A stretch of 64,000 nucleotides of DNA from an uncultured Candidatus Saccharibacteria bacterium (GTDB lineage Bacteria > Patescibacteriota > Minisyncoccia > Phycocordibacterales > PALSA-1337): the NCBI GenBank assembly GCA_964403205.1, contig CAYOER010000001.1, forward strand, positions 14,037-78,036. Reading direction: 5' to 3'. Below the pieces are notes generated by a model. The model did not search any database, was not told the DNA's origin, and saw only the letters and a program-made list of their open reading frames with translations. Positions 1 through 64,000 of the stretch are shown piece after piece; the first letter of the stretch is position 1, and every line of letters begins with the position of its first letter. A program made the position numbers and the translations under genes.

Positions 1-1988
1 TACCTTTTGAAGATAATGGGTATGTATATACTTCTGTGGATGCCGGAGTATCTTGGACAAGACGAGATAGTGCAGGACAGCGTGCTTGGACAGTTATTAC
101 TTCATCATCAGACGGTATGAGATTGGCTGCTGGTAGCTATGATAATATTAATAATCCTAGTGGATACATATATACGTCTGCAGATGGCGGAGCAACATGG
201 ATACAGAGAACAGGAGTGGGATATCGTTCATGGTCATCTCTTTCTTCATCAGCCGATGGTATGAGATTGGCTGCTGGTGAGTGGGGTGTTGGTGGAAATA
301 TATATATATCTTCAGATGGTGGAGTGACTTGGGTACCGAGTTTAGGGTTAGAAAGTAATCATTCTTGGGCAGATATTGCTTCATCGAATGATGGTATGAA
401 ATTAGCAACTAATAGTTATGGTGGAAACATATATACTTCCACTGACGGTGGTTTATCATGGATACATAGATTTAATACTGGAGGTATTACATTACATTCA
501 ATTGCATCATCAGCTGATGGTATAAAGCTCATTGCAGGAGACCTTTATCATAATTATGTATCTATAGATAGTGGAATATCATGGATAATACAAGATCTTC
601 CTGTACCAGCTGTTTGGTGGAATTCATTTTCAGTATCTGATGATGGTACACGATTTGTAGCATCTGTAGATGGTGGATATATATATACTAGTTATACAGC
701 TATTCCTTCATCAACTTTTGACTACTCTCTCTCTAATGGTGGTAACAGATATATAACTCCAGGAAGTACAGTTACAAATCCTATAACTGCAAATCTAGTA
801 TCAGGTACAACACAACCAATCAATCTGTATATTTCAAGTATAAAAAATAGTTCAAATGTAGAAGTATTCAATCAAGTAAATGGTATCGGTACAACATCGA
901 GTGCCTTAACAATAAATCCTGTAACACCTACTCAATCAAGCACACTCACTCTCTCTGCAACCGCTGGAGTACCTGCTGGAGTGTATACAGTGAATGTAAA
1001 TGGTATAGGAGATGGAGTAGCTCGCTCAACAAGCTTTACCGTAACTGTAGAATCATATAACCTAACTCTCGAAGATGGTAATACAGGAAATGGTGGTGGT
1101 GCAGCGGGATGTACCACTGGCTCTATTGTATTGACTTGGGATAAGGTAACTGGAATAGATCATTATAAAGTATATAGACAAGCTGGTAGTGATCCAGAGA
1201 TAGTAGTAAATGCAAATATAGCACAACCTAGCTCAGGTACTACAGTAACCTATGCAGATCAAGATCTAGCATCAGGTATATATACATATAGGGTAGAGGG
1301 CCTTCTCTCAGATAATACAATAGTAAGTAGTTCTCAACCGCAATCACACTTTGCTCCTGTAGATCCAGCTAAATGTCTATCATGTGATAATTTCACAGTA
1401 CCAGCATCTGTAATAAGTGGAGGTTCTGCAAATCTAGTATGGAATTCTACTAATGCCACTTCTTGCACTATAAAAAATGGATCTGGAACAACTCTATATT
1501 CAACTGAAGATGGAGATGAGACAATATCTAATATTACTAATCCACAGACATATAGATTATCATGTAATGGTCCAGAACCGATCGGAGAAGATAATATGTG
1601 TAGTATAAATCGTAGTCTGGTAGTAAGTGTAGAAGATACTTTCCCTCTATGGTTAAATGGAGATAGAAATGATATATCAGACAGAATAAGGGTTGGGCGA
1701 GAAATACATTTGAATTGGGAGACAACAGGTAAAGTTTCTGGAACTATAGTTCCTGATACATGTACTGGTAAAATTAAGAAAAATGGTAGTGATAGTACAA
1801 TGTCAGGATGGACAAATACAAATCTTTCTAAAGATAATATTATAAATCCTTTTGATTTAACATTGAGTGAAAGAGGGGATTATCAATTGACAGTACGATG
1901 TGATAGAGATACAGGTACATTAACAGATAGTGTTACTAGTAATCCAGTAAATATTAAGGTAACTCAAAGTACAATACAAGAAAGATAA
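1..1988 (+). CDS. BNR/Asp-box repeat surface protein with C-terminal Ig-like/fibronectin-like regions, 5' partial (reading frame is open to the window edge)
   Basis: Repeated S-x-D-x-G-x-(T/S)-W motifs (YIYTSADGGATW, IYISSDGGVTW, IYTSTDGGLSW and others) every ~45 aa. The frame upstream of the track start (nt 3-35) still encodes a repeat (YVYTSVDAGVSW) with no stop. The C-terminal half is Thr/Ser/Asn-rich and beta-rich. Confidence 0.6.
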   Translation, partial: PFEDNGYVYTSVDAGVSWTRRDSAGQRAWTVITSSSDGMRLAAGSYDNINNPSGYIYTSADGGATWIQRTGVGYRSWSSLSSSADGMRLAAGEWGVGGNIYISSDGGVTWVPSLGLESNHSWADIASSNDGMKLATNSYGGNIYTSTDGGLSWIHRFNTGGITLHSIASSADGIKLIAGDLYHNYVSIDSGISWIIQDLPVPAVWWNSFSVSDDGTRFVASVDGGYIYTSYTAIPSSTFDYSLSNGGNRYITPGSTVTNPITANLVSGTTQPINLYISSIKNSSNVEVFNQVNGIGTTSSALTINPVTPTQSSTLTLSATAGVPAGVYTVNVNGIGDGVARSTSFTVTVESYNLTLEDGNTGNGGGAAGCTTGSIVLTWDKVTGIDHYKVYRQAGSDPEIVVNANIAQPSSGTTVTYADQDLASGIYTYRVEGLLSDNTIVSSSQPQSHFAPVDPAKCLSCDNFTVPASVISGGSANLVWNSTNATSCTIKNGSGTTLYSTEDGDETISNITNPQTYRLSCNGPEPIGEDNMCSINRSLVVSVEDTFPLWLNGDRNDISDRIRVGREIHLNWETTGKVSGTIVPDTCTGKIKKNGSDSTMSGWTNTNLSKDNIINPFDLTLSERGDYQLTVRCDRDTGTLTDSVTSNPVNIKVTQSTIQER

Positions 1989-2014
1989 AAGGTACCTAGT
2001 ATGATATAAAAAAG

Positions 2015-2050
2015 GAAGCTCCCTGACCATGTGATAGTCTGGGAGCTTTT
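2015..2050. terminator. bidirectional rho-independent terminator hairpin between convergent genes
   Basis: gaagctccc-(17 nt loop)-gggagctt followed by tttt on the + strand; on the - strand the hairpin is followed by a U-tract (the A-run at 2007-2013). Confidence 0.5.
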
Positions 2051-2061
2051 GATAATGAGTG

Positions 2062-3102
2062 TCACAGTCCTTTCACTCGAAAGAAACTGCGCTGTGAACT
2101 CGGAAGGGTGATTTCGAAAGCCTGTTCTCCATAGTAATCAGGTATCCTCTCAACCCTATAGACCTCAGTCCAAGTGGTAAAGTTCGTAGACTCTTCTAAA
2201 AGGAGTGTTCTGAAGGAGTCTCCTCCTAATACCCTGATGGTAACTGTACCATCAAGATTATTGGTGATGCTCGTACGAATAGGGATGATCCCGGGTCTTT
2301 CGACTCCAGAACCATCTACTACTCTGTATGCACCATCATTTACTATGAGCTTGAATCTATTAGGCTCACCGGTAAGAAATCTGGTCTCAATGAACAACAG
2401 TTCATTTGCTCTATCAACCCAACCAATTTCTGGATCTGGATTGTTCTTGGAGTCCTTTACTCCCCAACTAATGATGTTACCGTTCTCGTCATAAGGCTGT
2501 TGAACAGCCCAACGGATTGTTGGAATGAAAAATACAAGTTTTGGTACGATTGGCATTTTGTATCCAGACAGATCTGGAATATTGTATTTTCCACTTACAC
2601 TACTATACTGAAATTCAAGAGTTGATAAGTATTCAAAGAAGTCAAAAAACTCCATACGCCCAGCTCTACCTACGAGACCATCAGCATAAGCATGGATAAT
2701 GAATTCCTTGCTGAAATCAGCATTGGTATTTGTAAGTGTTTGATTCAATACCTCACTGAGCTTCGATTGAAACATAGCATCAACTTCAGCTTTACTCTTG
2801 AATCGAGGATTATCAACGAAAGTTCTACCTGTAACAAAGAGTTGATTATCACTCTGTCTTCTCTGCATTGCAAAGATAACAAAGGATGATCTACAGTTTG
2901 TCGCTGCATAGTTTTCCACATCGTCGAATGGAAGAGAGAGAACTGTTCCACCCTGCACCACCTGAGCTTTTGCTTCGATGGTGATTGAGATGATGACTGA
3001 AATCGCGATCAGGAGGATCGCGATGAACCGAAACCAACGATTGATCGTGTTCACGATCTTCCTTTCTCTTTTAATTGTTATTGTTCCATAGATTTCACTC
3101 AT
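2062..3102 (-). CDS. hypothetical membrane-anchored/secreted protein (N-terminal TM helix), in a G+C-elevated islet
   Basis: 346-aa ORF with a single N-terminal hydrophobic helix (RWFRFIAILLIAISVIISITI). No recognisable catalytic motif. Its composition is clearly richer in G+C than the flanks. Confidence 0.45.
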   Translation of the reverse strand: MSEIYGTITIKRERKIVNTINRWFRFIAILLIAISVIISITIEAKAQVVQGGTVLSLPFDDVENYAATNCRSSFVIFAMQRRQSDNQLFVTGRTFVDNPRFKSKAEVDAMFQSKLSEVLNQTLTNTNADFSKEFIIHAYADGLVGRAGRMEFFDFFEYLSTLEFQYSSVSGKYNIPDLSGYKMPIVPKLVFFIPTIRWAVQQPYDENGNIISWGVKDSKNNPDPEIGWVDRANELLFIETRFLTGEPNRFKLIVNDGAYRVVDGSGVERPGIIPIRTSITNNLDGTVTIRVLGGDSFRTLLLEESTNFTTWTEVYRVERIPDYYGEQAFEITLPSSQRSFFRVKGL

Positions 3103-3261: not shown

Positions 3262-4125
3262 ATGAGTAAGGAAATTATAGAAAAATTGGAAAAATTGAAA
3301 CTATTTCTAGATACTAAAAATAATGTTCTAGCTGCATTTTTATTTGGTTCATATGCTAAGGATATGACTCATAGGGAATCAGATATAGATATTGCTATAT
3401 ATTTTAATCCGGAAGGTAAAGATGTGGAATACGAAGAAGAAAGACAATATGATGGAGAGGATGAATTATGGTCAGAAATTGAAAAAATATTAGAGATAAA
3501 GACAGATATGGTTGTATTGAACAGAGCATCATCAACTCTTGCAGACTCTATTATAAAGACTGGGAAATTACTCATAATGAAAGATCAAAAGTATTTTACT
3601 AGATTCACAAATGTAATAAATGAAGCTGCTGATTATTATAGAGATTATATGGATGATTTTCTTAAAATAAAAGAAAGATCAAATTCATTGAGTCTTACTG
3701 ATAAAGAAAGGCTAATTAAAATAACAGAATTTCTGGAACAAGAAATTAAGGATTTTCCTATTTTCAGGCAAATTGATCAGATAAAATATCAAAATGATAG
3801 AGGAACAAAAAGAAATATGGAAAGATGGGTTGAAAATATTGTCAATTCTAGTATAGATATAGCAAAGATCATTCTTGCTTCAGAGAAAAAACTTATTCCT
3901 AATACATATAAAACAATTTTAGAGAATCTAATTGAGGTAAATAATTTTGATTTAGAAAAAGCTAAGGCTCTTGGAAGATTTGCAAAAATTAGAAATATTC
4001 TCGCTCATGAATATCTTGATCTAAGGTTCAATAAGATTAGGGAATTCCTAGCTAATTCAGAAGAATACTATTCTTATCTCGTTTCTTTTTCAAGAGATTT
4101 TATTAAAAAAGATAAGGAAATCTAA
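3262..4125 (+). CDS. single-chain fusion of a minimal nucleotidyltransferase (MNT, Pol-beta fold) and a HEPN (DUF86/HepT-like) domain
   Basis: N-terminal LFGSYAKD...ESDIDIAIYF (GS-x9-13-DxD NTase signature). C-terminal FAKIRNILAHEY matches the HEPN Rx4-6H motif. Confidence 0.6.
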   Translation: MSKEIIEKLEKLKLFLDTKNNVLAAFLFGSYAKDMTHRESDIDIAIYFNPEGKDVEYEEERQYDGEDELWSEIEKILEIKTDMVVLNRASSTLADSIIKTGKLLIMKDQKYFTRFTNVINEAADYYRDYMDDFLKIKERSNSLSLTDKERLIKITEFLEQEIKDFPIFRQIDQIKYQNDRGTKRNMERWVENIVNSSIDIAKIILASEKKLIPNTYKTILENLIEVNNFDLEKAKALGRFAKIRNILAHEYLDLRFNKIREFLANSEEYYSYLVSFSRDFIKKDKEI

Positions 4126-4196
4126 CTAATTCTTATATATATATATTGTATCTATTATTCAATATTAATCAATTAGGTTAATATTTTATTAACATT

Positions 4197-5180
4197 TTAT
4201 TTTTTTAATATTTTCTTATCAAAAACATTCTTTTCATCAATATGCTGATGTAAATTCTTTATTTCCTGATATGCATTATTGAGGTCTTTTGTTAATTCCC
4301 TAATCTTCTCCATTTGATACATTCCATTTATTACATTTTTAATAAGGGTAATACCTATAAATATAGATATGATAAATACAGCAATACTTATGTATAGTTC
4401 ATTACTATTTTCAGAAAGAATTGTACGGAATAAAAGAAATATCCAAAGTATAAAAATAGCTGTTTCAATTGCAATGATTTTTATATTGAAAAGTCTGTGC
4501 TTTGTGATGGCGTAGGAGATAATAGAAATCCATATAATACTTGAGAGCGGGCTTGTCCAATCATAATTAAATATACCTAATCTCGGTAACACGAGACTAG
4601 TAATTAATGGTGGTATAAATCCAATTATAAATACTATAATCATGAAATTAAGATTTATTATGATTTGCTTATCAATAGTTTCTCTCAGTTTTTTATATAT
4701 AATATTTATCCCAATTAAAAAAATTGTAATAAAATTAATATCGAAAATAAACCAAAGTGGACCATATTCCCAACTTGGATAATTATTACTCTGTATCGTT
4801 ATAACATTACCAATAATTAAATTTGTAAAGAATAATAGATAGAAAATTAATATTAATGATAATATTAATGGATATACAATATTATCTTGTATTTTATTTT
4901 CATACGGGTATGAAATTACAAATAATAAGAATATATTAACCATTATAAATGCTAGAAAATAACTTAATTTTATAACTAAATTTGTCATATATATATCTTC
5001 TGTCATTACTGATAAATTAGCTATTCCTATAATAAAGCTCCACATAGAAAGAAAGAGAGATAAATATGAAAATAAACGTACTGACTGAATTTTTTTACCT
5101 AAATAATATAAACCTATTGAAAAAACAATAAGTATAGCTCCAGCTGACCAATCAATAATTGAATGTAAATTTGTATCCAT
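4197..5180 (-). CDS. polytopic membrane protein resembling the N-terminal sensor module of the adjacent histidine kinase, but lacking the kinase core
   Basis: Seven or more predicted TM helices followed by a coiled-coil tail. It shares the K(H/Y)RLFNIK motif plus a following TM helix with the histidine kinase at 6848-8440. No H-box or ATPase motifs. Confidence 0.45.
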   Translation of the reverse strand: MDTNLHSIIDWSAGAILIVFSIGLYYLGKKIQSVRLFSYLSLFLSMWSFIIGIANLSVMTEDIYMTNLVIKLSYFLAFIMVNIFLLFVISYPYENKIQDNIVYPLILSLILIFYLLFFTNLIIGNVITIQSNNYPSWEYGPLWFIFDINFITIFLIGINIIYKKLRETIDKQIIINLNFMIIVFIIGFIPPLITSLVLPRLGIFNYDWTSPLSSIIWISIISYAITKHRLFNIKIIAIETAIFILWIFLLFRTILSENSNELYISIAVFIISIFIGITLIKNVINGMYQMEKIRELTKDLNNAYQEIKNLHQHIDEKNVFDKKILKK

Positions 5181-10271: not shown

Positions 10272-10754
10272 TTAAAGTATTTTATTAATTTCATTAAAAT
10301 AATCTTTACTTAATCTATGTCCTGTATTAGGTACAATAATATCTCCTGATTCATTTTCTTTATCACCATACATTATTGTCTGTTTATTCGCTAGATGTAT
10401 TGGATTGATATTTTTAATTATATCATTTACAAACTTTAAACCAGTTATATTTATTAGTTCTTTTATCATTTTCTTATCTTTCCAATAATAATATGGTGTC
10501 ATAGAAGCTAATATTATGTGTTTACATTCATAATTCTGTGCTATTAACCATGCCAAAACTGCACCTAATGAAAAACCGATAATTATGGCATCTTTAGATA
10601 CAGGAAAAATCTGTGATGATAGTTCTTTATTCCAATCTACATTTTTATGTACCACTTCATAGCCCTTTTTTTCAGCAATTTCTGCTAGTAGTTGATATGG
10701 TTTACGTTTACAGGTTTCTTCCCATCCTGGTATGATATATATGATTTTTTTCAT
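10272..10754 (-). CDS. small alpha/beta-hydrolase-fold serine hydrolase (GxSxG esterase-like)
   Basis: Nucleophile elbow GFSLGA and a ~160-aa alpha/beta pattern with a C-terminal His (NTGHRL). Confidence 0.5.
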   Translation of the reverse strand: MKKIIYIIPGWEETCKRKPYQLLAEIAEKKGYEVVHKNVDWNKELSSQIFPVSKDAIIIGFSLGAVLAWLIAQNYECKHIILASMTPYYYWKDKKMIKELINITGLKFVNDIIKNINPIHLANKQTIMYGDKENESGDIIVPNTGHRLSKDYFNEINKIL

Positions 10755-10832
10755 AATGATTATTAATACTTTAAATAAAATAAAGAACGGGTAGAGATTT
10801 GTCGTCCTACCCGTTCACACCTTCTTTGGCGC

Positions 10833-11072
10833 CTAATTGAATTCACCGCCTTTGACGCCATTGACGAACGCTTTCCATTCGTCATGGCTAAAGAACAATG
10901 TCCGCTTTCTGCGGTCTTTGCTATCTCGGACAGCAACGCCCTCGAGCTTGGTCGCAACCAACACGCAGGTCTTCGGATTGTTTTTTGACCAGGAAGATTT
11001 GGTAAAATCCTGATCATCGACATCGAAACGACCATCATTTTCTGCACTGGTAGTGGAGTTTTTCTTTTTCAT
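10833..11072 (-). CDS. DUF397-domain protein (an actinobacterial-type small domain), solitary, in a G+C-rich islet
   Basis: FTKSSWSKNNPKTCVLVA...VAVRDSKDRRKRTLFFSHDEWKAFVNGVKGGEFN matches the DUF397 pattern (KSS-S..CVEVA ... VRDSKDP.GP.L.F....W.AF...VK.G.FD). Local G+C is around 50% against a backbone of about 30%. Confidence 0.65.
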   Translation of the reverse strand: MKKKNSTTSAENDGRFDVDDQDFTKSSWSKNNPKTCVLVATKLEGVAVRDSKDRRKRTLFFSHDEWKAFVNGVKGGEFN

Positions 11073-11223
11073 TCTATCTAGCTGTTTGTGTTGTTAGGTT
11101 GAGTCACCATGACTCATCTATAAATATTATATCCTAATAATTAAACATTCGTCAATATAATGAATGTTTAGACGAGTTGTGGTATTGAAAATAAGTGGAG
11201 AAGGGGGTAGGATAGAATAATAT

Positions 11224-11715: not shown

Positions 11716-11743
11716 TATTTGTATATTTGCTGTCTTTTAATTA

Positions 11744-11782
11744 AAAACCCCCACAGCGATTAGAACGCTTGTGGGGGGTTTT
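11744..11782. terminator. rho-independent terminator (probably bidirectional)
   Basis: cccccacagcg-attagaa-cgcttgtgggggg followed by tttt; an A-run precedes it on the + strand. Confidence 0.7.
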
Positions 11783-11800: not shown

Positions 11801-12025
11801 TTAGTCTCGTTCGTTTGTAGTGTAGAGCAACCTATTTCCGGTAAAGGGAATCTTTTCTGAAGATACCACTTCTCCGGAGAAGTCCACTTCAATTATTCGA
11901 GGTGGAGGCCATAGTGGTTTGACCATTGCTTCACATGGGGGTGGTGCCCCATCAACCACTTGATGCATTTGATTGAACCACCACTGTGCTCCAGCAAACC
12001 GTTTTCTCCGCACACATTTATTCAT
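11801..12025 (-). CDS. hypothetical small Pro/Trp-rich protein in a G+C-elevated segment (start chosen at an internal Met, MNKCVRR)
   Basis: An ORF in a locally G+C-rich segment between the terminator and the YqeY gene. No recognisable domain, so it could be non-coding. Confidence 0.25.
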   Translation of the reverse strand: MNKCVRRKRFAGAQWWFNQMHQVVDGAPPPCEAMVKPLWPPPRIIEVDFSGEVVSSEKIPFTGNRLLYTTNERD

Positions 12026-12080
12026 TGTGTCCCTTTTGGTTTGGATTATACGACATGCTTTACTAACTAATAGTATTATA

Positions 12081-12533
12081 TCACCTATTGACAATCTCGT
12101 CAACTACTTGTTTAACATCGTTACCATCTGCTTTACCTTTTAGCTCTTTCATTAGCATACCTATGAATTGCCCCACTTTTGTCTTATCTATTGCTCCTGT
12201 TTTCTTTATCTTTTCTTTTACAATTTTTTCTATTTCCTTTTTACTCATTGTGGCTGGTAGGAATTCTTCTAGAATTTTCAACTCCAATTTTTCTTGTTTT
12301 GCTAGATCATCTCTGCCACCTTTTTCGAATTGCTCAATAGAATCTTTTCTTTGCTTTACACTCCTTTTTATAAGAGTTATAACATCTTCATCTTTAAGTA
12401 ATGGATCATTTATACCTTTTGCAATTAATTCATTGCTAAAAAGAGCTTGGAGTCCACGTAGAACCTCTAGACGTACACTATCTCTAGCACGCATTGCTTC
12501 TTTTGTTTGGTTTTTTATATTTTCATGCATCAT
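12081..12533 (-). CDS. yqeY: GatB/YqeY-domain protein
   Basis: Whole-length similarity to the YqeY pattern (NIKNQTKEAMRARD..RLEVLRGL...IKRSVKQRKDSIEQF...ELKILEEFLP). Confidence 0.7.
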   Translation of the reverse strand: MMHENIKNQTKEAMRARDSVRLEVLRGLQALFSNELIAKGINDPLLKDEDVITLIKRSVKQRKDSIEQFEKGGRDDLAKQEKLELKILEEFLPATMSKKEIEKIVKEKIKKTGAIDKTKVGQFIGMLMKELKGKADGNDVKQVVDEIVNR

Positions 12534-12541
12534 ATTTATAT

Positions 12542-12589
12542 TGGTTTTATATTATTATTTTTGCTATATTATAGCATATGGAAATATTA
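12542..12589 (+). repeat. copy A of a ~48-bp direct repeat (tggttttatatt..ttg[c/a]tatattatagcatATGgaaatatta) immediately upstream of the glycan cluster
   Basis: An identical 25-mer, tatattatagcatatggaaatatta, at 12565-12589 and 19663-19687; the flanking ~20 nt are also near-identical. It contains a -10-like tatatt/tattat and ends in ATG GAA ATA TTA. Confidence 0.7.
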
Positions 12590-12660
12590 AATAAATCATT
12601 ATTAATATATTTAATAGAAACATATTGTTGTTCAAATGATAACATATACTATAAGTAATT

Positions 12661-19621: not shown

Positions 19622-19640
19622 CTTAAATCATTCAGTATCA

Positions 19641-19687
19641 TGGTTTTATATTGTTATATTTGATATATTATAGCATATGGAAATATT
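19641..19687 (+). repeat. copy B of the ~48-bp direct repeat, overlapping the rmuC start codon
   Basis: See copy A; a 25/25 identity core. Confidence 0.7.
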
Positions 19688-21215: not shown

Positions 21216-21488
21216 ATGAACAATCAGTGTCGGTATTGTCAGGTCGCCGTAGGCCAGAATCATACGCCTAACTGTCCTATAATGGATGTGAATCCGGAAT
21301 GGGCAAAGAAGGAATGGCAGACTGGCTATGATCGAGGTTTCAATGATGACTTCGCACCTCGTCGCTTCCTCTCTCACTATTCACCTCATTTCCAAAGGGG
21401 TTATCAGATGGGGAGTGACGAGATTGATAGATTGGTTGAGAATGCAGAGTCAGATCGTTACCACGGTATTGGCGAAAGAGAATACTAA
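21216..21488 (+). CDS. hypothetical small Cys-containing protein (90 aa) in a G+C-rich islet with a strong SD
   Basis: AGGAGG sits 9 nt upstream of the ATG. A CRYC...NC cysteine cluster. G+C is clearly above background. The gene is flanked by a leader inverted repeat and a terminator. Confidence 0.5.
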   Translation: MNNQCRYCQVAVGQNHTPNCPIMDVNPEWAKKEWQTGYDRGFNDDFAPRRFLSHYSPHFQRGYQMGSDEIDRLVENAESDRYHGIGEREY

Positions 21489-21546
21489 CACAGGGCAAAA
21501 CGCCCAGAAAGGAGGTTCTCATGACCTAGCAAAACAAAAAAACACA

Positions 21547-21575
21547 GGGGCACTTCGGTGCCTCTTTGATTTTAT
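21547..21575 (+). terminator. rho-independent terminator
   Basis: ggggcac-ttcg-gtgcctc followed by tttgattttat. Confidence 0.6.
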
Positions 21576-30471: not shown

Positions 30472-30497
30472 ATTCTGAGGTGTGAACAAAAACACGG

Positions 30498-40598: not shown

Positions 40599-40691
40599 AT
40601 ATATCCTTAATCGAATTGTGTTGTGCTAAAGCAAAGAGATAGCCTAAAATAAGGATCCCCAAGCTCGTTCTATATAACCCTAGCATACTAT

Positions 40692-40706
40692 TGACTAGTT
40701 GTCAAT
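40692..40706. promoter_or_regulatory. near-palindromic operator-like site TTGAC-tagtt-GTCAA upstream of the CSD gene
   Basis: TTGACTAGTTGTCAA (12/15 palindromic positions) about 95 nt upstream of the CSD start; it overlaps a -35-like TTGACA on the coding strand. Confidence 0.3.
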
Positions 40707-40783
40707 ATTAATTTAATATTACCCTACTTTTCTGTGGACATTATACCAAAAAGTTCGGATTTTTCGGCGGGCGGGCTTAAATT

Positions 40784-42562: not shown

Positions 42563-42565
42563 GTG

Positions 42566-44188: not shown

Positions 44189-44229
44189 AATTTTGACAAA
44201 AATTAGTTAATAATATCAAGAATTCAATT

Positions 44230-45618: not shown

Positions 45619-45687
45619 ATTAGGGTAATATTAGCATATTACTGTATTCATTTCATCTGGTAATAGATAATCTTTATTGCTATTATT

Positions 45688-45975
45688 ATGTCAGAAAGGC
45701 TCCCCATGATCAACTCCGAAATTACAGATAAAATCATGCAGGGTTTGCAGGTTTCTCTGGAAGCAATAGGAAAGGATGAGGATGAGATTAGAAAATTGAT
45801 GTGGCACTTCAGAAGTATGATGATAAATGTGAATCGAAATGTGTATATTCTGCCATCCGGCGATTACAAATTCACACTTGTCATTGCTTCTGTAGCTAAT
45901 CAACAAATTCGTTTACTTGTTGCAAGTGCTCTCAATCAATCAAGCCTCAACTTCTCCACTGTTTCTGCTGTATGA
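45688..45975 (+). CDS. hypothetical small protein in a G+C-elevated segment
   Basis: A 95-aa ORF followed by the hairpin cgccacgc...gcgtggcg; no recognised motif. Confidence 0.3.
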   Translation: MSERLPMINSEITDKIMQGLQVSLEAIGKDEDEIRKLMWHFRSMMINVNRNVYILPSGDYKFTLVIASVANQQIRLLVASALNQSSLNFSTVSAV

Positions 45976-46049
45976 GAAACACAGACTCAACTAACGCCAC
46001 GCTCTGAATTAACACTCAGGCGTGGCGAGGGTTGTTATGTAAGGTTATT

Positions 46050-51982: not shown

Positions 51983-52001
51983 TTATACTCCTATTTGGGT
52001 A

Positions 52002-52805
52002 TTAATAGCAAGTTGTCCCAAGCTTTAATGATTTTGTTAAGTAATACATAGGGTTTTTGAATAATTCTGGTGAGGAAAATCTGAATGAAAATTCCCTCAC
52101 ATATTTTTCTAAATTAGTTGACCAATGATGATGATACATTCTTCTAACAAAAGTACGGTAGTTTCCAAATACTCCTTCGATTTCTGATGTATGAGCAAAT
52201 TCAAATCTTTTATGTATATCTCTACTGTGTTTAACTGGCCACCATTTGTTAATTCCTTTGTAAATCGCTGCACCATCAGTCCACAGTTTAGATCCTGGTT
52301 TAACTTTTCTAAAGAGAAAATATCCTGCATGATGTCTCTGTACTGATGTCCCAATAATGACATCATATGCTAGTTTTCTAGTTCCTTTTTGTTTACCCAT
52401 AACCAATGTCATATCCTTGAAATACGCCTCGTCTAACTGCACTATACGCTCTAGAATGTGGGTTTCCCGTGGTAATTGTCCTCTGAATGTGTCAAACCAC
52501 TTACGTATACAAAGTGGAGATAGTTCTGTAAATGCAACCGTTTGTTTAACTGGTATCTCACAACTCTAACACCAGAGTATCATCCACCACTTTTGAAGTG
52601 GTAATTTTAAATTAGAAAGCCATGTGTGTGACAGGAGAGAGAATCTGATGCGACAATCTTTACACCTATATCGACCTGATTGTATTCCTATTCGTCTCGA
52701 CTTACATTCAGGACAAAATATGTTCTTGCCAAACAATATTCTGCGAATATATTTTCTAATTTGTGCCTCACTTGGTATTTGATTGTGTGTATACATAATG
52801 TCCAT
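52002..52805 (-). pseudogene. IS1595-family (ISXO2-like) transposase disrupted by a frameshift
   Basis: The N-terminal piece (52566-52805) has the zinc ribbon CPECKSRRIG...RYRCKDCRIRFS. The C-terminal piece (52002-52442) has VQLDEAYF (the first D of DDE) and HTSEIEGVFGNYRTFVRRMYHHHW...REFSFRF. The linking segment (KWFDTFRGQLPRETHILERI) is readable only in a different frame from the N-piece. Confidence 0.75.
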
Positions 52806-52828
52806 ATTCTAATATGTATGGGACAACT
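52011..52828 (-). mobile_element. IS1595-like insertion sequence (~0.82 kb) with perfect 10-bp terminal inverted repeats
   Basis: AGTTGTCCCA at 52011-52020 and its reverse complement TGGGACAACT at 52819-52828. The left IR overlaps the transposase stop and the right IR lies just upstream of its start. Confidence 0.65.
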
Positions 52829-52901
52829 GGTATATATTACCCTCCTATTTACTATTGACAAGGATACTAAATCATGATAGTCTCGCATATAGATTCGCAC
52901 C

Positions 52902-53189
52902 ATGAAAAATGCATATCAAATCCTAGGGGTTTCCCCTGCCGCTAGTATAGCGGAAATCAAGGATGCGTACCGAAAACTCTCGGTACATTGGCATCCGGAC
53001 AAAAACAAGAGTCCGGAAGCTGGGCACACCTTTGCCTCGATTTCGGAAGCTTATGGCATCCTCTCTGACTCGCGCAAGCGACAAGAGTTGGATGAAAAGA
53101 TTTCCAAAGGCCAAGTTGAGAATATCAATGAGGTCGTGGAGAGAGTCGTGGATTCATTTCTTGATTCGTTAACTGAACGGAAACACTAA
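52902..53189 (+). CDS. J-domain-only protein (DnaJ N-terminal domain, 95 aa)
   Basis: YQILGVSPAASIAEIKDAYRKLSVHWHPDKN with the HPD tripeptide. G+C is about 50%. Confidence 0.8.
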   Translation: MKNAYQILGVSPAASIAEIKDAYRKLSVHWHPDKNKSPEAGHTFASISEAYGILSDSRKRQELDEKISKGQVENINEVVERVVDSFLDSLTERKH

Positions 53190-53219
53190 TCAACAACAAA
53201 ACAAAGAGAAAGGATACGG

Positions 53220-53648
53220 GTGAGGACACTGAACGTAGTGGTAAATGAACTTCGTGAACAAATTGAGGAGGCTACAGATCCCAAGGATCCAAACAAGCTT
53301 CCACAATACACCGCTTCGCTGCGGGATGGTATTGATTCGTTTGTCTCGATGCTCACTGATGACCCGACGATGGCCGCGCTCGCATTCCACAATCAAATCA
53401 GATACGACAATCAGTCGGTTATGATCAAAATTGTGGAACACGACACGGTATCCGGTAGTGATTGGCCGCTTATCAAGCAGTCGATCCAAGTGCGCCCCGA
53501 TGCGCATAAGGCCGTCAAAACCCTTGAACAAGCTGGGCTCGAAGCAGTATTGGCGACCGCTGTGGCCGCCAACTTCAAGCTCACACAACAACGTCGCGCT
53601 CAACGCGAGGCGTTGGAACAAGAAGAGGAGTACCAAAATGTTGAATGA
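53220..53648 (+). CDS. hypothetical protein (G+C-rich cassette gene 2)
   Basis: A 142-aa ORF with no recognised motif. Its stop overlaps the next start (ATGTTGAATGA). Confidence 0.45.
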   Translation: MRTLNVVVNELREQIEEATDPKDPNKLPQYTASLRDGIDSFVSMLTDDPTMAALAFHNQIRYDNQSVMIKIVEHDTVSGSDWPLIKQSIQVRPDAHKAVKTLEQAGLEAVLATAVAANFKLTQQRRAQREALEQEEEYQNVE

Positions 53649-54351
53649 ACAAGACAAAATGAGTGAGCATGAAAAGCTCGTCACCGTACTTCGTTATCAG
53701 GGTGCATTGGCTGTCGAAAGTCAGCTTGTGGATCTTGCCAATAAGGAGGGTGATGAAGCCATTGTGAGAATCGCCGGAAATCTATCTGCTGCCGAAGTTG
53801 CGCAAGTAACTTCTGAGGCAGATATGGTCAGCCCGTCACTTCTGCATACTGCAGTCAATCTCGAACAGTTCCGCGGAGTATTTCGGCGCATAGGCGTTCG
53901 ATGGAGCTCTGCGGAACAAGAGGATTGCTCACCTGAAACACTTCAGGAACTTCAGGATGAACTCAAACAGTTCTTCTGTGCATTCATTCTTCTGAACGAA
54001 GACGGAAAGCGTCGCGTTGAACTGATGAATGTCATTCTGGACGAGCCGCACGGTATCCATGCCCTAGTCTTCAGTGTCGTCCACGAAAAGGACTTTCTTG
54101 AATTCCTAGAATCCAATGGAAGCACTAGTGATGTCGGGGATTGGCGCGAGGTTATTGGGATCTTGCGTAACAACTTTCCCGAACAGTGGGAACGGTTCAA
54201 GAAAATTTTACCGGACTGTTACAACGGTAATGATTACCTCAACTTCATTCATGAGATCGCCGCTGAAATCTATGCGGTAGCCGTGTCTCAAGGAGCCGTC
54301 AGACGAACAGAAGTCGAAAAAGCGGATGATCTATTTATTCCGCTTGAATAG
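53638..54351 (+). CDS. hypothetical protein (G+C-rich cassette gene 3); start set at MLNEQDK
   Basis: A 238-aa ORF. The longer track ORF from 53431 overlaps gene 2 out of frame and is taken as a 5' over-extension. Confidence 0.4.
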   Translation: MLNEQDKMSEHEKLVTVLRYQGALAVESQLVDLANKEGDEAIVRIAGNLSAAEVAQVTSEADMVSPSLLHTAVNLEQFRGVFRRIGVRWSSAEQEDCSPETLQELQDELKQFFCAFILLNEDGKRRVELMNVILDEPHGIHALVFSVVHEKDFLEFLESNGSTSDVGDWREVIGILRNNFPEQWERFKKILPDCYNGNDYLNFIHEIAAEIYAVAVSQGAVRRTEVEKADDLFIPLE

Positions 54352-54413
54352 GCATGCAAACCAACAGCCTCCCCGAGTGACCCTCCGGGAGGCTGTATTT
54401 CTGAAAGGAATAT

Positions 54414-55388
54414 ATGAATCTGCAAATTAGAGATAAACGAGATCCGTTCACCCAAGCGTTGGCATTTCTTTTCAGAAGCGAGGAGAATGTGCTGACATTA
54501 AGACGAAAGCTCCATAAGGAAATGATTTCTCTTGTGACTCAAGTCGCGGTGAAAATTGGTGGTATCGATACCGAAAAAGCTGTTCGTGATCGTGCATTAG
54601 CGGTATTCACTGGAATCGTAAGTCTCTATCTGATGAATCTAACAAAAGGTTCGAACAATCCTGAAGAATGGTCAAGGATTGTGAGCTCTGGAGATCTCAG
54701 AATACTTTTCCAGCGTGGATATACGATGATACATGAAATCCTTCATGGTCGTTGGAAATTGGAGATTGAAAAGGATGGCAAAAGAATATTCTACGAAACC
54801 AGGACTGAACGACTTGAACAATTCGCTGTTCATCGGATAAATGATCAATGGGCAGGGTATATTCTATACCTCAAGGAAGCAACTTCGCTGAAAGAGGAGA
54901 TTCTCTGGAGTGAATTCGCAAATTGGTTAAAAGACGATTACAGCGGAAAAAGAGAACATAGAAGAATTTCTGAACAGAGCCTTTTTCATGAAGGAGAACT
55001 TTTTGAAGAAGGAGAAATTATCAGAAGAGTGTTCTACCACATCCTTCATTCTGGTAAGCCTTCTTTTATAATGAACTTTCGAATAGCACGTGAGATTGTG
55101 GATCACGCACAGAAAGACAAAAAGTGGCTACAGAAGGCTACAATCAACTACTCCAGATTCGTTACTAGCTTACCACTTCGTTTTCAGGAATGCTTTCTCT
55201 ATCAAGTGAGAGAAGATGAACCGGGAAACAGTATAATGAGCGAAGTATCTTCTGTTTGGAGGAATGTGAAGTGGATATGCAGAAAACGCAAGCATAGCAA
55301 TAGATCAGAAGCAATCGATTCTGTTTGTATTAATACAGGAGTTCCATCTCCTGGACTTAGTAAATCAAACAGAACTACATTCGAATAG
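54414..55388 (+). CDS. hypothetical protein (G+C-rich cassette gene 4)
   Basis: A 324-aa ORF with no recognised motif. Confidence 0.45.
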   Translation: MNLQIRDKRDPFTQALAFLFRSEENVLTLRRKLHKEMISLVTQVAVKIGGIDTEKAVRDRALAVFTGIVSLYLMNLTKGSNNPEEWSRIVSSGDLRILFQRGYTMIHEILHGRWKLEIEKDGKRIFYETRTERLEQFAVHRINDQWAGYILYLKEATSLKEEILWSEFANWLKDDYSGKREHRRISEQSLFHEGELFEEGEIIRRVFYHILHSGKPSFIMNFRIAREIVDHAQKDKKWLQKATINYSRFVTSLPLRFQECFLYQVREDEPGNSIMSEVSSVWRNVKWICRKRKHSNRSEAIDSVCINTGVPSPGLSKSNRTTFE

Positions 55389-55437
55389 CTCAACACAAAA
55401 CCGAAAACTCGTAAGAGTGAGTAGGTTTTTTTTATTA

Positions 55438-56415
55438 TCACCCCCACTTCGTCTTTATATACTCCGTCGTCTCACTCATAGAGAATGGCTGAGTGGAGTT
55501 CCCTACTCTTACAAAAAAGTCTTCTTTTTTATCTCCATTTGTGAGATATGCTGGTTTATGACTTTCTTTTACATCTACAATACAAATCTCTTTATTTTCT
55601 ATTTTCTCAAATTTTATATTTATATATTTAGAAAAAGCTAAACCAATCATATTTTTTATAAGAGTATTAACATAATTTTCAAATCCGTCTTTATCTTTTC
55701 TCTGTTGCAAAGTTTTATAATCATTTTCTAGACCGATTATTTCACCATTATCTCTTACACCGATAAGCAGAATTCCACCAGAAGCATTGAGAAAACCTAC
55801 AATAGTTTTCATAATAGATTTCTCCATTTCCTTATTCATTTCATTCTTACGGATGTCATATCGCAATGTTTCTTTGAATTCTAAAAGTAATCCTTCACCA
55901 TCTTCTATTAAACTCTTTATATCTTTTATGAAAATCTTGCCAGATGAACTATGTACCATTTGCTTTATTATATATACATATTCTTCGAAATTCCCTATAT
56001 TCTTTATTTTTGTCACTCTCTCATTATTATGTTCAAGAATAATAGTGGCATGATTCATCATCCTACCTAGAGGACTCTGATATGTCTCTACAGATGCTAC
56101 GTCAGACAAACCTACACTTTTCTTTTTTCTAAACAAAAGCCCACTTTTCTTTATTATTTCTTTTTCTCTGATTTCATAATGAGAGAAGTACCAATCTAAA
56201 AAGAGAATACCAATATAGATAAATTGAAAAAATGAGAAGATTATTATTTCAAAGATATCAAAACGGATATAATCATGAAAACCAAGATTCCTAAACATCA
56301 TTTCATAATTACCAAGAAAAGAAACGGCAAAGAAGAATAGAGAAGCGATAATTTCCATAGCTATTAGATTGCGTAGGAAAACCAATGGTCCTTCTTTTAT
56401 TATTATTACTCTCAT
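55438..56415 (-). CDS. membrane protein fusing a bPH_2 (YdbS/YdbT-like bacterial PH) domain to a Schlafen-type AlbA_2 putative DNA/RNA-binding domain
   Basis: N-terminal two TM helices plus KKSGLLFRKKKSVGLSDVASVETYQSPLGRMMNHATIILE (bPH_2). C-terminal EGLLLEFKETL...KTIVGFLNASGGILLIGVRDNGEIIGLEND (AlbA_2 pattern EFK..FaNt.GG.lliGv.d.G.i.G). Confidence 0.55.
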   Translation of the reverse strand: MRVIIIKEGPLVFLRNLIAMEIIASLFFFAVSFLGNYEMMFRNLGFHDYIRFDIFEIIIFSFFQFIYIGILFLDWYFSHYEIREKEIIKKSGLLFRKKKSVGLSDVASVETYQSPLGRMMNHATIILEHNNERVTKIKNIGNFEEYVYIIKQMVHSSSGKIFIKDIKSLIEDGEGLLLEFKETLRYDIRKNEMNKEMEKSIMKTIVGFLNASGGILLIGVRDNGEIIGLENDYKTLQQRKDKDGFENYVNTLIKNMIGLAFSKYINIKFEKIENKEICIVDVKESHKPAYLTNGDKKEDFFVRVGNSTQPFSMSETTEYIKTKWG

Positions 56416-61407: not shown

Positions 61408-61749
61408 TCATGGTAGGCTATCCATCCATGTACTTTCCTTTGGATCTGGTCTACTCCATATAAGTATAAGTATGAGAATATAAATAAATCCCATAAAGAC
61501 TTGGACAGCTCCCATAAAGTATATACCAAGGCTGATAAGGATTAGTTCCTGCCAGAGACTGTTTGGCTCGAGTAAATATCTGACAGAGATATAGATGCTA
61601 GTAGGGGTCATGCAGATAATGAACCAGAGAAGTGTGGCCAATGGCCTACGATTATGAATCCAGGATAGGATATTACGTATAACAAGCCAGATACCGAGAG
61701 ATTTCACTTCTTCCACTTCCTCGACTTCACTTGCCTCTTGAGTTTTCAC
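61408..61749 (-). CDS. small hypothetical membrane protein (3 TM helices)
   Basis: A 113-aa ORF with three hydrophobic helices. Confidence 0.4.
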   Translation of the reverse strand: MKTQEASEVEEVEEVKSLGIWLVIRNILSWIHNRRPLATLLWFIICMTPTSIYISVRYLLEPNSLWQELILISLGIYFMGAVQVFMGFIYILILILIWSRPDPKESTWMDSLP

Positions 61750-62061
61750 TTGATTCCTTTTTGTTTGAGGTGCTGATTTATGATGATATTAGCACTATGA
61801 ATTTGTAGAGTCAATAATTATCTATTAATTGAAAAACCTATCTTTCCTTTTGGCTTATTTGGCCTCTCTATAAGTTGCTTAACTACTGCATGGATATTAG
61901 ATAATGGTAAATAACGACTACCACCATGTTTTGGTCTTGCAATTTGCAATATCAAAGTATCTAGATCATTTTTTGTGAGTTGAAATATAAAATCACTAAT
62001 AAATCAATATTGTGGATAACTTGCTACACTTTTCGGTTTCTATTCGGTTATAATATTACTA

Positions 62062-63633
62062 ATGTTAAATTTAACTAAGAAACAAAAAGTGGTCTTCGAT
62101 TTCATAAATAACTATATTTCAGAAAATGGTATATCTCCTACTATTGAAGAAATAAGAAGGCAGTTAAAATTAAAGGCAGTTTCCACTATTCATGAGCATA
62201 TAAAGACTCTTACAAAAAAAGGATACCTTTTAAAATCTGATAATTCAGCACGAGGTATACATAGCAAAGAAAGCTTAGACACAGTAGTAGAAATTCCGAT
62301 ATTAGGCAGAATATCTGCTGGTCAGCCTATAGAAGCTGTTGAGGAAATACAAGGTTATGCTTCATTGACAAATACAAATATTAAAAGTCCTCAAGGCTAT
62401 TATGCTTTACGTGTTATTGGAGATAGCATGATCGATGAAGGAATCTTTGATGGTGATCTTGTAATAATCAAGAAACAATCAGTTGCTGAAAATGGGCAAA
62501 CTGTAGTTGCTATAATTGATGAAAACGAAGCAACATTAAAGAAAATATATAGGGAAAATAGTGGATTCCGCTTACAACCAGCAAATCAAACCCTGCTTCC
62601 GCTTTTTAGAAAAGAAGTAGAGATACGTGGAGTTGTAGTACAAATAATAAGAAATATTAATAAGACTAGTAGTTTAGATACAGTAACTAAGAATGAATTA
62701 CATACTATTGATCTTTTTGCTGGAGTAGGTGGTATCAGGCTAGGATTTGAAAAAGCTGGATTTAAAACAGTCTTTGCTAATGATTTTGAAGCGAAATGTA
62801 AAGACACTTATGATATGAACTTTAAAGACTCTAAACTAGTAGTAGAAGATATAAGAAAAATAGGTATCGATGATCTTCCAGAATTTGATTTTCTATTGGG
62901 TGGATTTCCTTGTCAGGCTTTCTCTATTGCTGGATATAGAGAGGGTTTCAAGGACAGAAAAGATAGAGGGAATCTGTTTTTTGATGTGGCAAAGATAATA
63001 GAAGAGAGGAAACCTAAGGGTTTCTTATTGGAGAATGTAAAAAATCTCAGAAGTCATGATGGGGGTAGGACATTTGAAATAATAGAAAATACTCTAAAAA
63101 ATCTAGGTTATCATATAAAATCAAAAGTACTTAATAGCATGGAGTATGGGAATATACCCCAAAATAGAGAGCGTATTTATATTGTAGGATTCCGAGATAA
63201 AAATCATTATGATAATTTTAATTTTCCAGAGTCAATTAAATTAACAAAAAAGATTACTGATCTGCTAGAAGATGATGTACCAGAAAAATATTACTATAAT
63301 GGAAAGCCTCTATATAAAAAATTATATGGTGTTATTAAAGATGAAGGAAAAGTATATCAATGGAGAAGACAGTATGTTAGAGAAAATAAAAAAGGAGTAT
63401 GCCCAACTCTCACAGCTAATATGGGTACGGGTGGCCATAATATACCGATAATAAAAGATAAAAAAGGTATAAGAAAATTAACCCCCTTAGAGTGTGCAAG
63501 AATACAAGGGTTTCCTAATGATTTTAAATTACCAAATATTTCAGATTCAGCATTGTATAAACAATTTGGAAATTCTGTTAGTGTGCCCGTAATTGAAGCA
63601 ATAGCTAGGCAGATATTGAAAGCAATAAATTAA
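62062..63633 (+). CDS. in-frame fusion of a full LexA (HTH + Ala-Gly site + S24 peptidase) with a C5-cytosine DNA methyltransferase
   Basis: Residues 1-~200 align motif-for-motif with LexA: LTKKQKVVFDFINNYISENGISPTIEEI...EHIKTLTKKGYL; RISAGQPIEA (the A-G cleavage site); VIGDSMIDEGIFDGDLVII...ATLKKIY (Ser/Lys dyad); ...VVVQIIRNI (the LexA C-terminus). With no stop or Met, the frame continues into MTase motif I IDLFAGVGGIRLGF, motif IV GGFPCQAFSIAG, motif VI FLLENVKNL, and motif IX/X QFGNSVSVPV. Confidence 0.75.
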   Translation: MLNLTKKQKVVFDFINNYISENGISPTIEEIRRQLKLKAVSTIHEHIKTLTKKGYLLKSDNSARGIHSKESLDTVVEIPILGRISAGQPIEAVEEIQGYASLTNTNIKSPQGYYALRVIGDSMIDEGIFDGDLVIIKKQSVAENGQTVVAIIDENEATLKKIYRENSGFRLQPANQTLLPLFRKEVEIRGVVVQIIRNINKTSSLDTVTKNELHTIDLFAGVGGIRLGFEKAGFKTVFANDFEAKCKDTYDMNFKDSKLVVEDIRKIGIDDLPEFDFLLGGFPCQAFSIAGYREGFKDRKDRGNLFFDVAKIIEERKPKGFLLENVKNLRSHDGGRTFEIIENTLKNLGYHIKSKVLNSMEYGNIPQNRERIYIVGFRDKNHYDNFNFPESIKLTKKITDLLEDDVPEKYYYNGKPLYKKLYGVIKDEGKVYQWRRQYVRENKKGVCPTLTANMGTGGHNIPIIKDKKGIRKLTPLECARIQGFPNDFKLPNISDSALYKQFGNSVSVPVIEAIARQILKAIN

Positions 63634-64000
63634 AGCTTGCTTATTAATTTTTTCCAATCGTCATCTAAATTATGTAAATATTTTACAGATTTAACATATC
63701 TATACCCGTTACTAAATTTTTGACCAGGTATTGCTTTAACTTTTTCTAATTCTTCTGCATATGCAAAACCACAAATCCAAACTGGTATTTCCTCTAATTT
63801 ACCAATTTTTTTGAAATTTTTATTATCATCAATAAATTTTCTAACCTTTCCAAAAAAAGAATGGTCTCTTAATATTCTAAAAAGATGATCACTTGGTAAA
63901 CCCACTCGCGCAAATATATAAATATCACTCCTCCTTTCTTTTAGGTCTAATTCATTTGAACCCAATACAAGAAAAGCATTCTTCATTTTACTTGCTTTAA
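63630..64000 (-). CDS. hypothetical protein, convergent with the methyltransferase; probably 5'-truncated by the window edge
   Basis: The frame remains open to nt 64000 beyond the first Met (63986). No recognisable motif (not Vsr-like). Confidence 0.35.
   Translation of the reverse strand, partial: KASKMKNAFLVLGSNELDLKERRSDIYIFARVGLPSDHLFRILRDHSFFGKVRKFIDDNKNFKKIGKLEEIPVWICGFAYAEELEKVKAIPGQKFSNGYRYVKSVKYLHNLDDDWKKLISKL

Follow-up and report, generated by a model that had tools for sequence, protein, structure and literature searches.

GC-rich islets in an AT-rich patescibacterial chromosome segment: probable accessory cassettes at re-used junctions and one resident gene with raised GC3

Phage morons are independent transcription units that lie between other genes, carry their own promoter and terminator, and are atypical in base composition. 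Small proteins with a DUF397 domain, among them the BldB-type proteins of Streptomyces, are best known from Actinobacteria. In groundwater Patescibacteria, 83% of the detected horizontal transfers come from other Patescibacteria (Gios et al. 2025, mSystems; PMC12455944). Atc systems were described from 294 genomes, mainly of Beta- and Gammaproteobacteria (10.64898/2026.09.07.749886). Here, we analysed a stretch of 64,000 nucleotides, called the window throughout (positions 14,037 to 78,036 of contig CAYOER010000001.1, assembly GCA_964403205.1). The window is a piece of chromosome from an AT-rich bacterium of the Paceibacteria (Patescibacteria, or Candidate Phyla Radiation, CPR), and in it eight islets richer in guanine and cytosine (GC) than their surroundings are embedded, including a DUF397 gene (islet 2) and a putative atcJABC-like operon (islet 8). 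We hold it rather probable (about 0.7) that this mosaic consists of accessory cassettes at re-used junctions, probably derived from patescibacterial sources of intermediate GC, together with one resident gene, encoding the DUF397 protein, with a high GC content at third codon positions (GC3).

The window resembles the islands of Gios et al. (PMC12455944) in having atypical segments in a streamlined CPR genome, transfers mostly within Patescibacteria and mostly not recent, and ABC transporters among the transferred genes. It differs from them in the size of its units, which measure 0.3–2.6 kb, often consist of a single gene and lie at junctions re-used across the phylum; furthermore, one unit only has a mobility gene nearby, and one apparent island, the DUF397 gene, seems to be resident. 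With morons, the islets have in common a single open reading frame (ORF), a promoter-like site on the 5′ side and a hairpin on the 3′ side, the position between otherwise adjacent genes and the shifted GC content. Unlike morons, they stand in a bacterial chromosome amid housekeeping genes, with no prophage, and their promoters and terminators are predicted only.

The backbone of the window carries rplU, recR, dnaB, cysS, corA, rplI, rpmA, gltX, murG, ftsW, scpAB, aspS, typA and type IV pilus genes. Relatives of its aspS gene with 57–88% identity come mostly from metagenome-assembled genomes (MAGs) of Patescibacteria (Nomurabacteria, Taylorbacteria, Paceibacterota), and a minority have another phylum label or none. 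The initial annotation, made from the letters of the sequence, had described GC-rich islets in an AT-rich backbone, and this description holds, as profiling of GC and GC3 shows deviation in all islets and that of tetranucleotides in some of them. The whole window has 33.9% GC; the eight islets sum to 8,358 bp with 43.2% GC, compared with 32.5% for the remainder. Single islets range from 41.2 to 45.9% GC (z = 2.1–5.0 against windows of the same size outside the islets), values attained by at most 1.2% of such windows. Backbone genes have a GC3 of 0.233 ± 0.039 with a maximum of 0.332 (n = 41), and the islet genes reach 0.35–0.53 (z = 3.0–7.6 over the backbone); thus, the shift is also present at synonymous positions. 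In tetranucleotide distance, islets 8, 5, 1 and 6 stand out (z 2.8–7.9), and the large islets are about as distant from one another as from the backbone. The GC-rich stem terminators of the initial annotation were found as well, hairpins being readable 3′ of islets 1–7, most of them with T-runs. The eight islets and a two-gene cassette that had been left unlisted are as follows; the ORFs given for islets 2 and 3 correct those of the initial annotation.

Islet 1: 2062-3102, minus strand; 346-aa ORF with an N-terminal transmembrane helix (GC 0.41, GC3 0.39, z 3.9).
Islet 2: 10833-11072, minus strand; 79-aa DUF397 protein, Pfam PF04149 (GC3 0.53).
Islet 3: 11801-12025, minus strand; stand-alone 74-aa ORF between a NUDIX gene and yqeY (GC3 0.39).
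Islet 4: 21216-21488, plus strand; 90-aa orphan ORF with an AGGAGG ribosome-binding site in the convergent gap between rplU and recR (GC3 0.46, z 5.7).
Islet 5: 30016-32574, plus strand; 151-aa ORF (30016-30471) and 590-aa ABC exporter with ABC_membrane and ABC_tran domains (30802-32574), GC3 0.41 and 0.44.
Islet 6: 40119-40598, minus strand; 159-aa orphan ORF between capA/Memo and scpA (GC 0.515, GC3 0.53, z 7.5).
Islet 7: 45688-45975, plus strand; 95-aa ORF between aspS and a pilin-like gene (GC3 0.40).
Islet 8: 52902-55388, plus strand; four genes, AtcJ-, AtcA-, AtcB- and AtcC-like.
Two-gene cassette: 40784-44188, minus strand; capA/Memo (592 aa) and a 540-aa protein, with a mild shift (GC3 0.32–0.33).

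According to the explanation that we favour, islets 4, 5, 6, 7 and 8 and the capA/540-aa pair would be small accessory cassettes of one to four genes each, usually equipped with their own promoter-like site and hairpin terminator. Their points of entry would be intergenic junctions flanked by conserved housekeeping genes, where varied inserts occur across the phylum. The cassette DNA would stem from genomes of intermediate GC, with other Patescibacteria as the traceable relatives, and the islets would look GC-rich mainly through contrast with an exceptionally AT-rich recipient, the composition of which the imports have yet to approach by drift. Islet 2, by contrast, would be a resident DUF397 gene, the GC3 of which is kept about 0.25 above that of the genome in nearly every lineage by a gene-specific force. 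Absence at the syntenic sites, the recurrence of cassette genes in different contexts and the insertion sequence (IS) remnant adjacent to islet 8 were observed directly; from these we infer the direction and mechanism of transfer.

Among the loci used for comparison (designated by L numbers), L029 is the best syntenic relative, a Tayloriibacteriota MAG with 31% GC in which the gene order is kept for the stretch from 32.8 to 59 kb at 57–88% amino-acid identity. Three segments of the window are missing there. Instead of 40042-44229 (islet 6 with the capA/Memo and 540-aa genes), aspS overlaps scpA; instead of 45619-46049 (islet 7), 33 bp lie between the pilin gene and aspS; and instead of 51983-55437 (the IS1595 remnant and islet 8), typA is separated by 19 bp from a 325-aa gene. 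L007 lacks islet 8, too, with 277 bp between typA and the 325-aa gene, and in L074, which is without islet 5, the flanking 105-aa and 147-aa genes are direct neighbours.

Two of the junctions could be followed through larger sets of relatives. The gap between aspS and scpA measures at most 108 bp in 18 of 49 relatives, and 0.4–8 kb lie between the two genes in 30 of them. Similarly, the convergent rplU/recR gap has 30–91 bp in 8 of 22 relatives and 288–2843 bp in the other 14. At these junctions the relatives carry toxin-antitoxin pairs, ABC exporters, a transposase-like gene, small membrane proteins and orphans. Because varied inserts in some relatives face abutment in others, tight abutment is likely the ancestral state at both junctions, which appear to be recurrent insertion sites. 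Overall, the synteny check agreed with the initial annotation for islets 4, 5, 6, 7 and 8, all of which are missing at the same junctions in relatives. The GC content of the cargo can lie above or below that of its host (0.47 vs 0.38 in L012; 0.28 vs 0.42 in L020), and the phylum spans a GC range of about 27–58%. As inserts are GC-richer or GC-poorer than their hosts, the GC-rich direction seen here would mainly reflect a recipient at the AT-rich end of the phylum.

The capA/540-aa pair sits within the same aspS/scpA insertion site as islet 6 and is missing from L029 as well as from 17 further relatives with abutting aspS and scpA genes. Over 3,193 bp, it is 85.5% identical at the nucleotide level to L152, a contig of 38% GC that has no other gene in common with the window. 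This identity provides direct evidence for what appears to be a fairly recent transfer. For the ABC exporter of islet 5, which is followed by a hairpin with T8 at about 32595–32628, the best matches were found in L081 and L132 (47–49% identity), both patescibacterial-type loci; L081 is a Paceibacterota MAG, and L132 harbours the DUF397 gene and its 160-aa partner (see below), too.

Islet 8 is the only islet with a mobility gene beside it, a decayed transposase of the IS1595 family (PF12760, E 7.6e-08; PF12762, E 6e-13) with a backbone-like GC3 of 0.26–0.33. In this region, the following features were identified.

IS1595-family transposase: 52002-52805, minus strand; decayed and split in two ORFs (Zn-ribbon 52566-52805, DDE 52002-52442).
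AtcJ-like: 52902-53189, plus strand; 95 aa, DnaJ domain (E 2.8e-23), HPD at residues 31–33.
AtcA-like: 53220-53648, plus strand; 142 aa, marked as Pfam PF27445 AtcA in the public record.
AtcB-like: 53638-54351, plus strand; 237 aa.
AtcC-like: 54414-55388, plus strand; 324 aa.

The initial annotation had counted three genes in this islet, and four were found, with intergenic distances of 30, -11 and 62 bp. The closest described system is AtcJABC of Shewanella oneidensis (PMC6715715; 10.64898/2026.09.07.749886), with which the islet shares a four-gene layout in the order J-A-B-C and similar product sizes. The 95-aa J-domain protein with its HPD motif and short C-terminal tail corresponds to the Shewanella AtcJ of about 94 aa, and the NCBIfam models for AtcJ (E 5e-11, model positions 1–92 of 93, 42.9 bits vs a cut-off of 150), AtcA (E 2.8e-06, 27 bits vs 200) and AtcB (E 2.9e-06, 27 bits vs 440) match weakly, albeit in the right order. 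The differences are that these scores are far under the curated cut-offs, that the PX7W motif is missing in the AtcJ-like protein (no Trp or Pro in its last 30 residues), that AtcC is unmatched, and that the host is a Patescibacterium. The AtcC-like protein itself gave no direct match to the AtcC model, and one remote member of its family matched with E 0.0049. Functional Atc systems without the PX7W motif have been reported (10.64898/2026.09.07.749886). Judged by these resemblances, islet 8 may be a divergent atcJABC-like operon, for which a role in cold adaptation via DnaK and RNA polymerase would be hypothetical. Patescibacteria go unmentioned in the published Atc literature that we consulted.

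The four-gene operon was found in L147–L151, with the order J-A-B-C also seen in L148, L150 and L151. Compared with L148, the window's proteins show 84% (J), 62% (A), 61% (B) and 36% (C) identity. Among 1.84 billion proteins, the AtcC-like protein has 34 representatives with a best identity of 46%; two of them have an organism name, and both are MAGs, of Taylorbacteria and of Paceibacterota. A metagenome scan with the AtcB-like protein gave zero relatives. In four lineages (the window, L148, L150 and L151) the operon occupies four different loci. Its GC3 ranges from 0.44 to 0.57 in hosts with a GC3 of 0.23–0.55, being near native in L148 (+0.06) and L151 (-0.06) and about +0.2 in the window and L150.

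Three further observations concern this operon. In L150 (167-10487) it lies directly upstream of infA-rpsM-rpsK-rpsD-rpoA-rplQ and grpE-dnaK, so that its neighbours include RNA polymerase and DnaK, known partners of the Shewanella Atc system. In L105 (330-1442), which belongs to the same species as the window, AtcA-like and AtcB-like were called as one 370-aa product; either a frameshift variant or an error of sequencing where the two ORFs overlap by 11 bp may account for this fusion. A small J-domain protein was also considered as a conserved neighbour of aspS and rejected, as the matches in relatives are canonical DnaJ proteins of 280–360 aa with host-like composition.

The initial annotation had seen in the islets frequent acquisition of foreign genes from a higher-GC donor, possibly a host. 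The first part stands for islets 4–8, which appear to be accessory inserts; it does not apply to islet 2, which appears resident, and the higher-GC host as donor found no support. Repeated uptake from a single donor of this kind, perhaps the host of an episymbiont, would explain why all islets are shifted in the same direction, and it would be in line with DUF397 being best known from Actinobacteria. The description of Atc systems mainly from Beta- and Gammaproteobacteria (10.64898/2026.09.07.749886) points the same way. The taxonomy of the best matches tells otherwise: the named relatives of the AtcC-like protein and all named DUF397 homologues but one are patescibacterial, and the matches of the ABC exporter lie in Paceibacteria-type loci. 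In addition, the proteobacterial Atc models match only remotely (E about 1e-6, under cut-offs), and the lineage retains DUF397 in a conserved, syntenic position. The spread of islet GC3 (0.35–0.53) and the tetranucleotide distances among the large islets speak against one donor, and the inserts of relatives at the same sites include some GC-poorer than their host. We therefore regard a single higher-GC donor as improbable. A donor pool within the Patescibacteria, as our favoured explanation has it, agrees with the groundwater data (PMC12455944).

The DUF397 gene of islet 2 follows a different pattern. Its product matches PF04149 with E 1.1e-14 (54.7 bits vs a cut-off of 24, model positions 3–55 of 55). 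The gene is preceded by a promoter-like site at 11126-11155 (TTGACG-18-TATAAT, 11/12) and followed by a hairpin with a T-run at about 10772–10816. Directly downstream stands its partner.

160-aa partner gene: 10272-10754, minus strand; backbone composition, GC3 0.155.

We found about 100 homologues of the DUF397 protein at 60–83% identity, and those with a name are all from Patescibacteria except one, from a MAG labelled Verrucomicrobiota. The order DUF397 followed by the 160-aa gene on the same strand occurs in 16 distinct lineages, with gaps of 63–171 bp and one of 484 bp, and the pair is often near a histidine kinase. All loci recovered with the DUF397 gene show it directly upstream of the 160-aa gene. 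The gene, counted in the initial annotation as a foreign insert, is thus conserved and syntenic across Paceibacteria, the very outcome named there as speaking against foreign origin. The third-position identity between lineages at conserved residues is 0.39–0.51; synonymous sites are therefore saturated, and the DUF397 genes are not recent copies of one another. By all appearances, islet 2 is no recent import and instead a long-resident gene. L108 (3102-3191) contains the closest relative of the 160-aa protein (82% identity) with no DUF397 gene upstream, a 90-bp gap to a divergent aminotransferase gene standing there, and therefore the pair can lose DUF397. The patescibacterial proteins share with the BldB-type ones the clear Pfam match and the small size (about 70–80 aa). 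They differ in forming a subfamily of their own with a 160-aa alpha/beta-hydrolase-like partner and often a histidine kinase, not an XRE regulator, and in the unusual GC3 excess seen in 15 of 16 patescibacterial lineages. A full-text literature search returned no paper naming both DUF397 and Patescibacteria.

This excess was consistent: the GC3 of DUF397 exceeded that of the other ORFs of its locus in 15 of the 16 lineages (mean +0.25, Wilcoxon p = 6e-5; the lineages are not phylogenetically independent). The offsets of aspS, scpA, scpB, recR, ftsW, murG, gltX and cysS were 0 ± 0.05, that of rplU +0.05 and that of the 160-aa gene -0.07. Since the gene is GC3-rich in nearly every lineage, its composition belongs to the gene and not to a donor. 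An invariant GC3 was considered and rejected: across the 16 lineages it instead tracks the background GC3 with a slope of about 1.1 and an offset of about +0.22, and in a stricter subset of 10 lineages the slope was 0.44 with a mean offset of +0.25. In L125, where the copy is degenerate, GC3 is 0.21 and equals the background. DUF397 coding sequences also fold into more stable structures than their synonymous-codon shuffles (mean z = -1.23, p = 0.0025; neighbouring gene -0.1). RNAalifold gave little sign of a conserved RNA structure, with a consensus of -8 kcal/mol and compensatory change in 3 of 22 pairs. Candidates for the gene-specific force are selection on codon use or mRNA stability, and biased gene conversion.

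One may ask whether gene-specific selection, through high expression, mRNA stability or biased gene conversion, keeps the islets in general GC-rich, as small genes that are resident or specific to the lineage. DUF397 exhibits precisely this pattern, including the stabler folding, islets 2 and 3 have the best promoter matches of their region, and islet 6, as an orphan, could have arisen or diverged at its present site. Against this extension to the whole set stand the absence of islets 4–8 from conserved junctions in relatives, the occurrence of the atc-like operon and the capA cassette in other genomic contexts, the IS remnant flanking islet 8, the GC3 of just 0.25–0.37 reached by the ribosomal protein genes of the window, and the lack of conserved RNA structure even in DUF397. 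As an account of all islets it seems unlikely to us, and we prefer accessory cassettes with DUF397 as the resident gene.

The remaining islets consist of ORFs with few or no relatives. Islets 1, 3, 4 and 7 found no match at curated thresholds in the family libraries, nor in 1.3 Mb of related loci. The islet 1 protein went unmatched in Pfam, PHROG, PADLOC and PDB and gave one weak, sub-threshold NCBIfam match (RND_1, E 0.0055); it forms a singleton cluster at 90% identity, its single-sequence AlphaFold2 (AF2) model is too poor for use (predicted local distance difference test, pLDDT, 49), and there is a shared, bidirectional hairpin at about 2016–2052. Islet 3, whose ORF is not annotated as a gene in the public collection, has a promoter-like site at 12075-12103 (TTGACG-17-TATAAT with TG, 11/12) and a hairpin with a T-run at about 11743–11780. 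The terminator of islet 4 is at 21546-21575, and its protein is a singleton cluster. Islet 6, with a hairpin and T-run at about 40058–40093, has no relative except itself among 5.8 billion cluster representatives, and its single-sequence AF2 model is unusable (pLDDT 31). Islet 7 was found in three independent contigs of the same species and belongs to a cluster of 7 at ≥90% identity, with a hairpin at about 45996–46027. Of the functions assigned in the initial annotation, DUF397, J-domain and ABC exporter held, and the cold-shock domain of islet 6 was dropped, with no Pfam match at E ≤ 1 and no cold-shock-domain chain in the PDB at E ≤ 10. A prophage origin was likewise rejected, since PHROGs match only DUF397 and the J-domain protein and IMG/VR contained no relatives of the four islet proteins searched, as was a defence origin, with zero PADLOC matches for the eight islet proteins submitted.

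As several islets are short, structured non-coding RNA genes may be considered for islets 2, 3, 4, 6 and 7. Lengths of 280–740 bp would suit such genes, a promoter-like site and a terminator accompany each islet, and the fold z-scores of islets 2, 3, 4 and 7 are -3.0 to -4.4 with the terminator hairpins included. These scores do not discriminate, however, as the rplU coding sequence used as a control has z = -3.6 and islet 6 only -1.25. Furthermore, each of these islets has an intact ORF with a start codon, a ribosome-binding site is visible in islets 3, 4 and 6, and islet 2 encodes a genuine Pfam protein. Within the islets, searches for transfer RNA (ARAGORN, which found none in the whole window), transfer-messenger RNA and Rfam families at gathering thresholds and at E ≤ 1 gave nothing. 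Protein-coding genes remain our preferred interpretation, and RNA genes appear very improbable.

Finally, in a metagenome-assembled contig the islets might be chimeras of the assembly, and same-species contigs from other samples often break off within islets 2, 6 and 8 or at their margins. Further, independent contigs of other samples cover islets 2, 3, 7 and 8 and a portion of islet 6 at 99.7–100% identity, namely L084 (islets 2 and 3), L001–L003 (islet 7), L090 (from scpA into islet 6) and L103–L105 (from islet 8 into its flank). As same-species contigs cross the junctions between islets and backbone, the mosaic is not an assembly artefact, and chimeras can hardly be credited. The contig ends at these three islets come from several metagenomes and fall at about 10838, 11097, 40252–40628 and 52866–52874; in one sample, the overlap of two contigs within islet 6 measures just 60 bp. 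Such ends suggest variation between strains or branching of the assembly graph at the islets.

Several points weigh against accessory cassettes of patescibacterial origin. No donor was found for any islet. For islets 1, 3, 4, 6 and 7, which have no detectable relatives, a patescibacterial origin is assumed by extension from the cases of islets 5 and 8, DUF397 and the capA cassette. Some of the orphan islets could be resident or newly arisen under a pressure such as that acting on DUF397, and not imports at all. The absence of islets 5 and 7 was seen in one relative each, where loss is possible. Within the window, we found no integrase, attachment site or flanking direct repeat for any islet and no shared repeat linking them. 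In the promoter scan, the sites of islets 2 and 3 (TTGACG-17/18-TATAAT) were the two strongest sigma-70-like matches in their region. Taken over whole regions, neither promoters nor terminators were enriched over shuffled sequence; the promoter-like sites and terminators are thus descriptive readings.

Composition also varies elsewhere in the window. One GC3-rich ORF was missed in the initial annotation.

Additional ORF: 61408-61749, minus strand; 113-aa membrane protein without a family match (GC 0.41, GC3 0.41, z 4.4).

At the left end, a 650-aa protein with repeated BNR/Asp-box-like segments (36-1988, plus strand) has a GC of 0.37 and yet the lowest GC3 of the window, 0.15. Because GC3 is so low there, the raised GC at 1-1750 is an amino-acid effect, and this tetranucleotide outlier is not a foreign islet. 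The most AT-rich stretch, 3262-5180 with 21–29% GC, encodes a fused nucleotidyltransferase-HEPN (HepT-like) protein and a seven-transmembrane protein; the mosaic therefore departs from the backbone both ways.

Some observations on the backbone itself may be added. DnaB (22171-24867, minus strand) is split by an intein with a LAGLIDADG homing endonuclease at about residues 401–819. A 79-nt direct repeat, 78% identical between its copies at 12537-12615 and 19636-19714, brackets a 7-kb glycosyltransferase/polysaccharide cluster; the copies lie directly upstream of the first gene of the cluster and of rmuC, and the repeat could be a shared promoter region or a scar of cluster insertion. The aspS gene (44230-45618, minus strand) is 88% identical to that of L004, 85% to that of L005 and only 69% to that of L029, to which all flanking genes are closest, and a copy acquired from a different lineage may have taken the place of the original gene at this site, which is prone to insertions. 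Adjoining typA, as in L029 and L007, a gene at 55438-56415 (minus strand) encodes a protein with bacterial PH and Schlafen/AlbA_2 domains and a weak PADLOC match to a pAgo model.

Islands of horizontal gene transfer (HGT) in Patescibacteria have already been published (PMC12455944), and in this respect the window is largely an ordinary further example. Less familiar, apparently, are the repeated use of particular housekeeping junctions throughout the phylum, the Atc-like operon of Patescibacteria and the phylum-wide GC3 excess of DUF397. A more far-reaching idea, which we offer as speculative and doubtful, is that small single-gene cassettes, each with a promoter and terminator of its own, circulate among Patescibacteria and enter a few housekeeping junctions, aspS/scpA and rplU/recR among them, without a recognisable integrase, in a moron-like shuffling of chromosomal genes. 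Alongside them, some resident genes (DUF397, perhaps the atc-like operon) would be held GC-rich against the AT bias of the genome by selection on mRNA or by biased gene conversion at loci prone to recombination.

For composition-based HGT calls, the results urge caution, as GC deviation alone misclassifies one of the eight islets, DUF397. The GC3 excess of this gene may serve the study of selection or biased gene conversion in uncultured bacteria. An Atc-like J-domain/RNA-polymerase module in Patescibacteria would be of note in view of a literature that describes the module mainly from Proteobacteria. For the biology of the organism, the mosaic suggests that a streamlined, AT-rich CPR genome gains accessory functions in very small units between housekeeping genes, and that the source of such units apparently lies within the phylum and not in the host.

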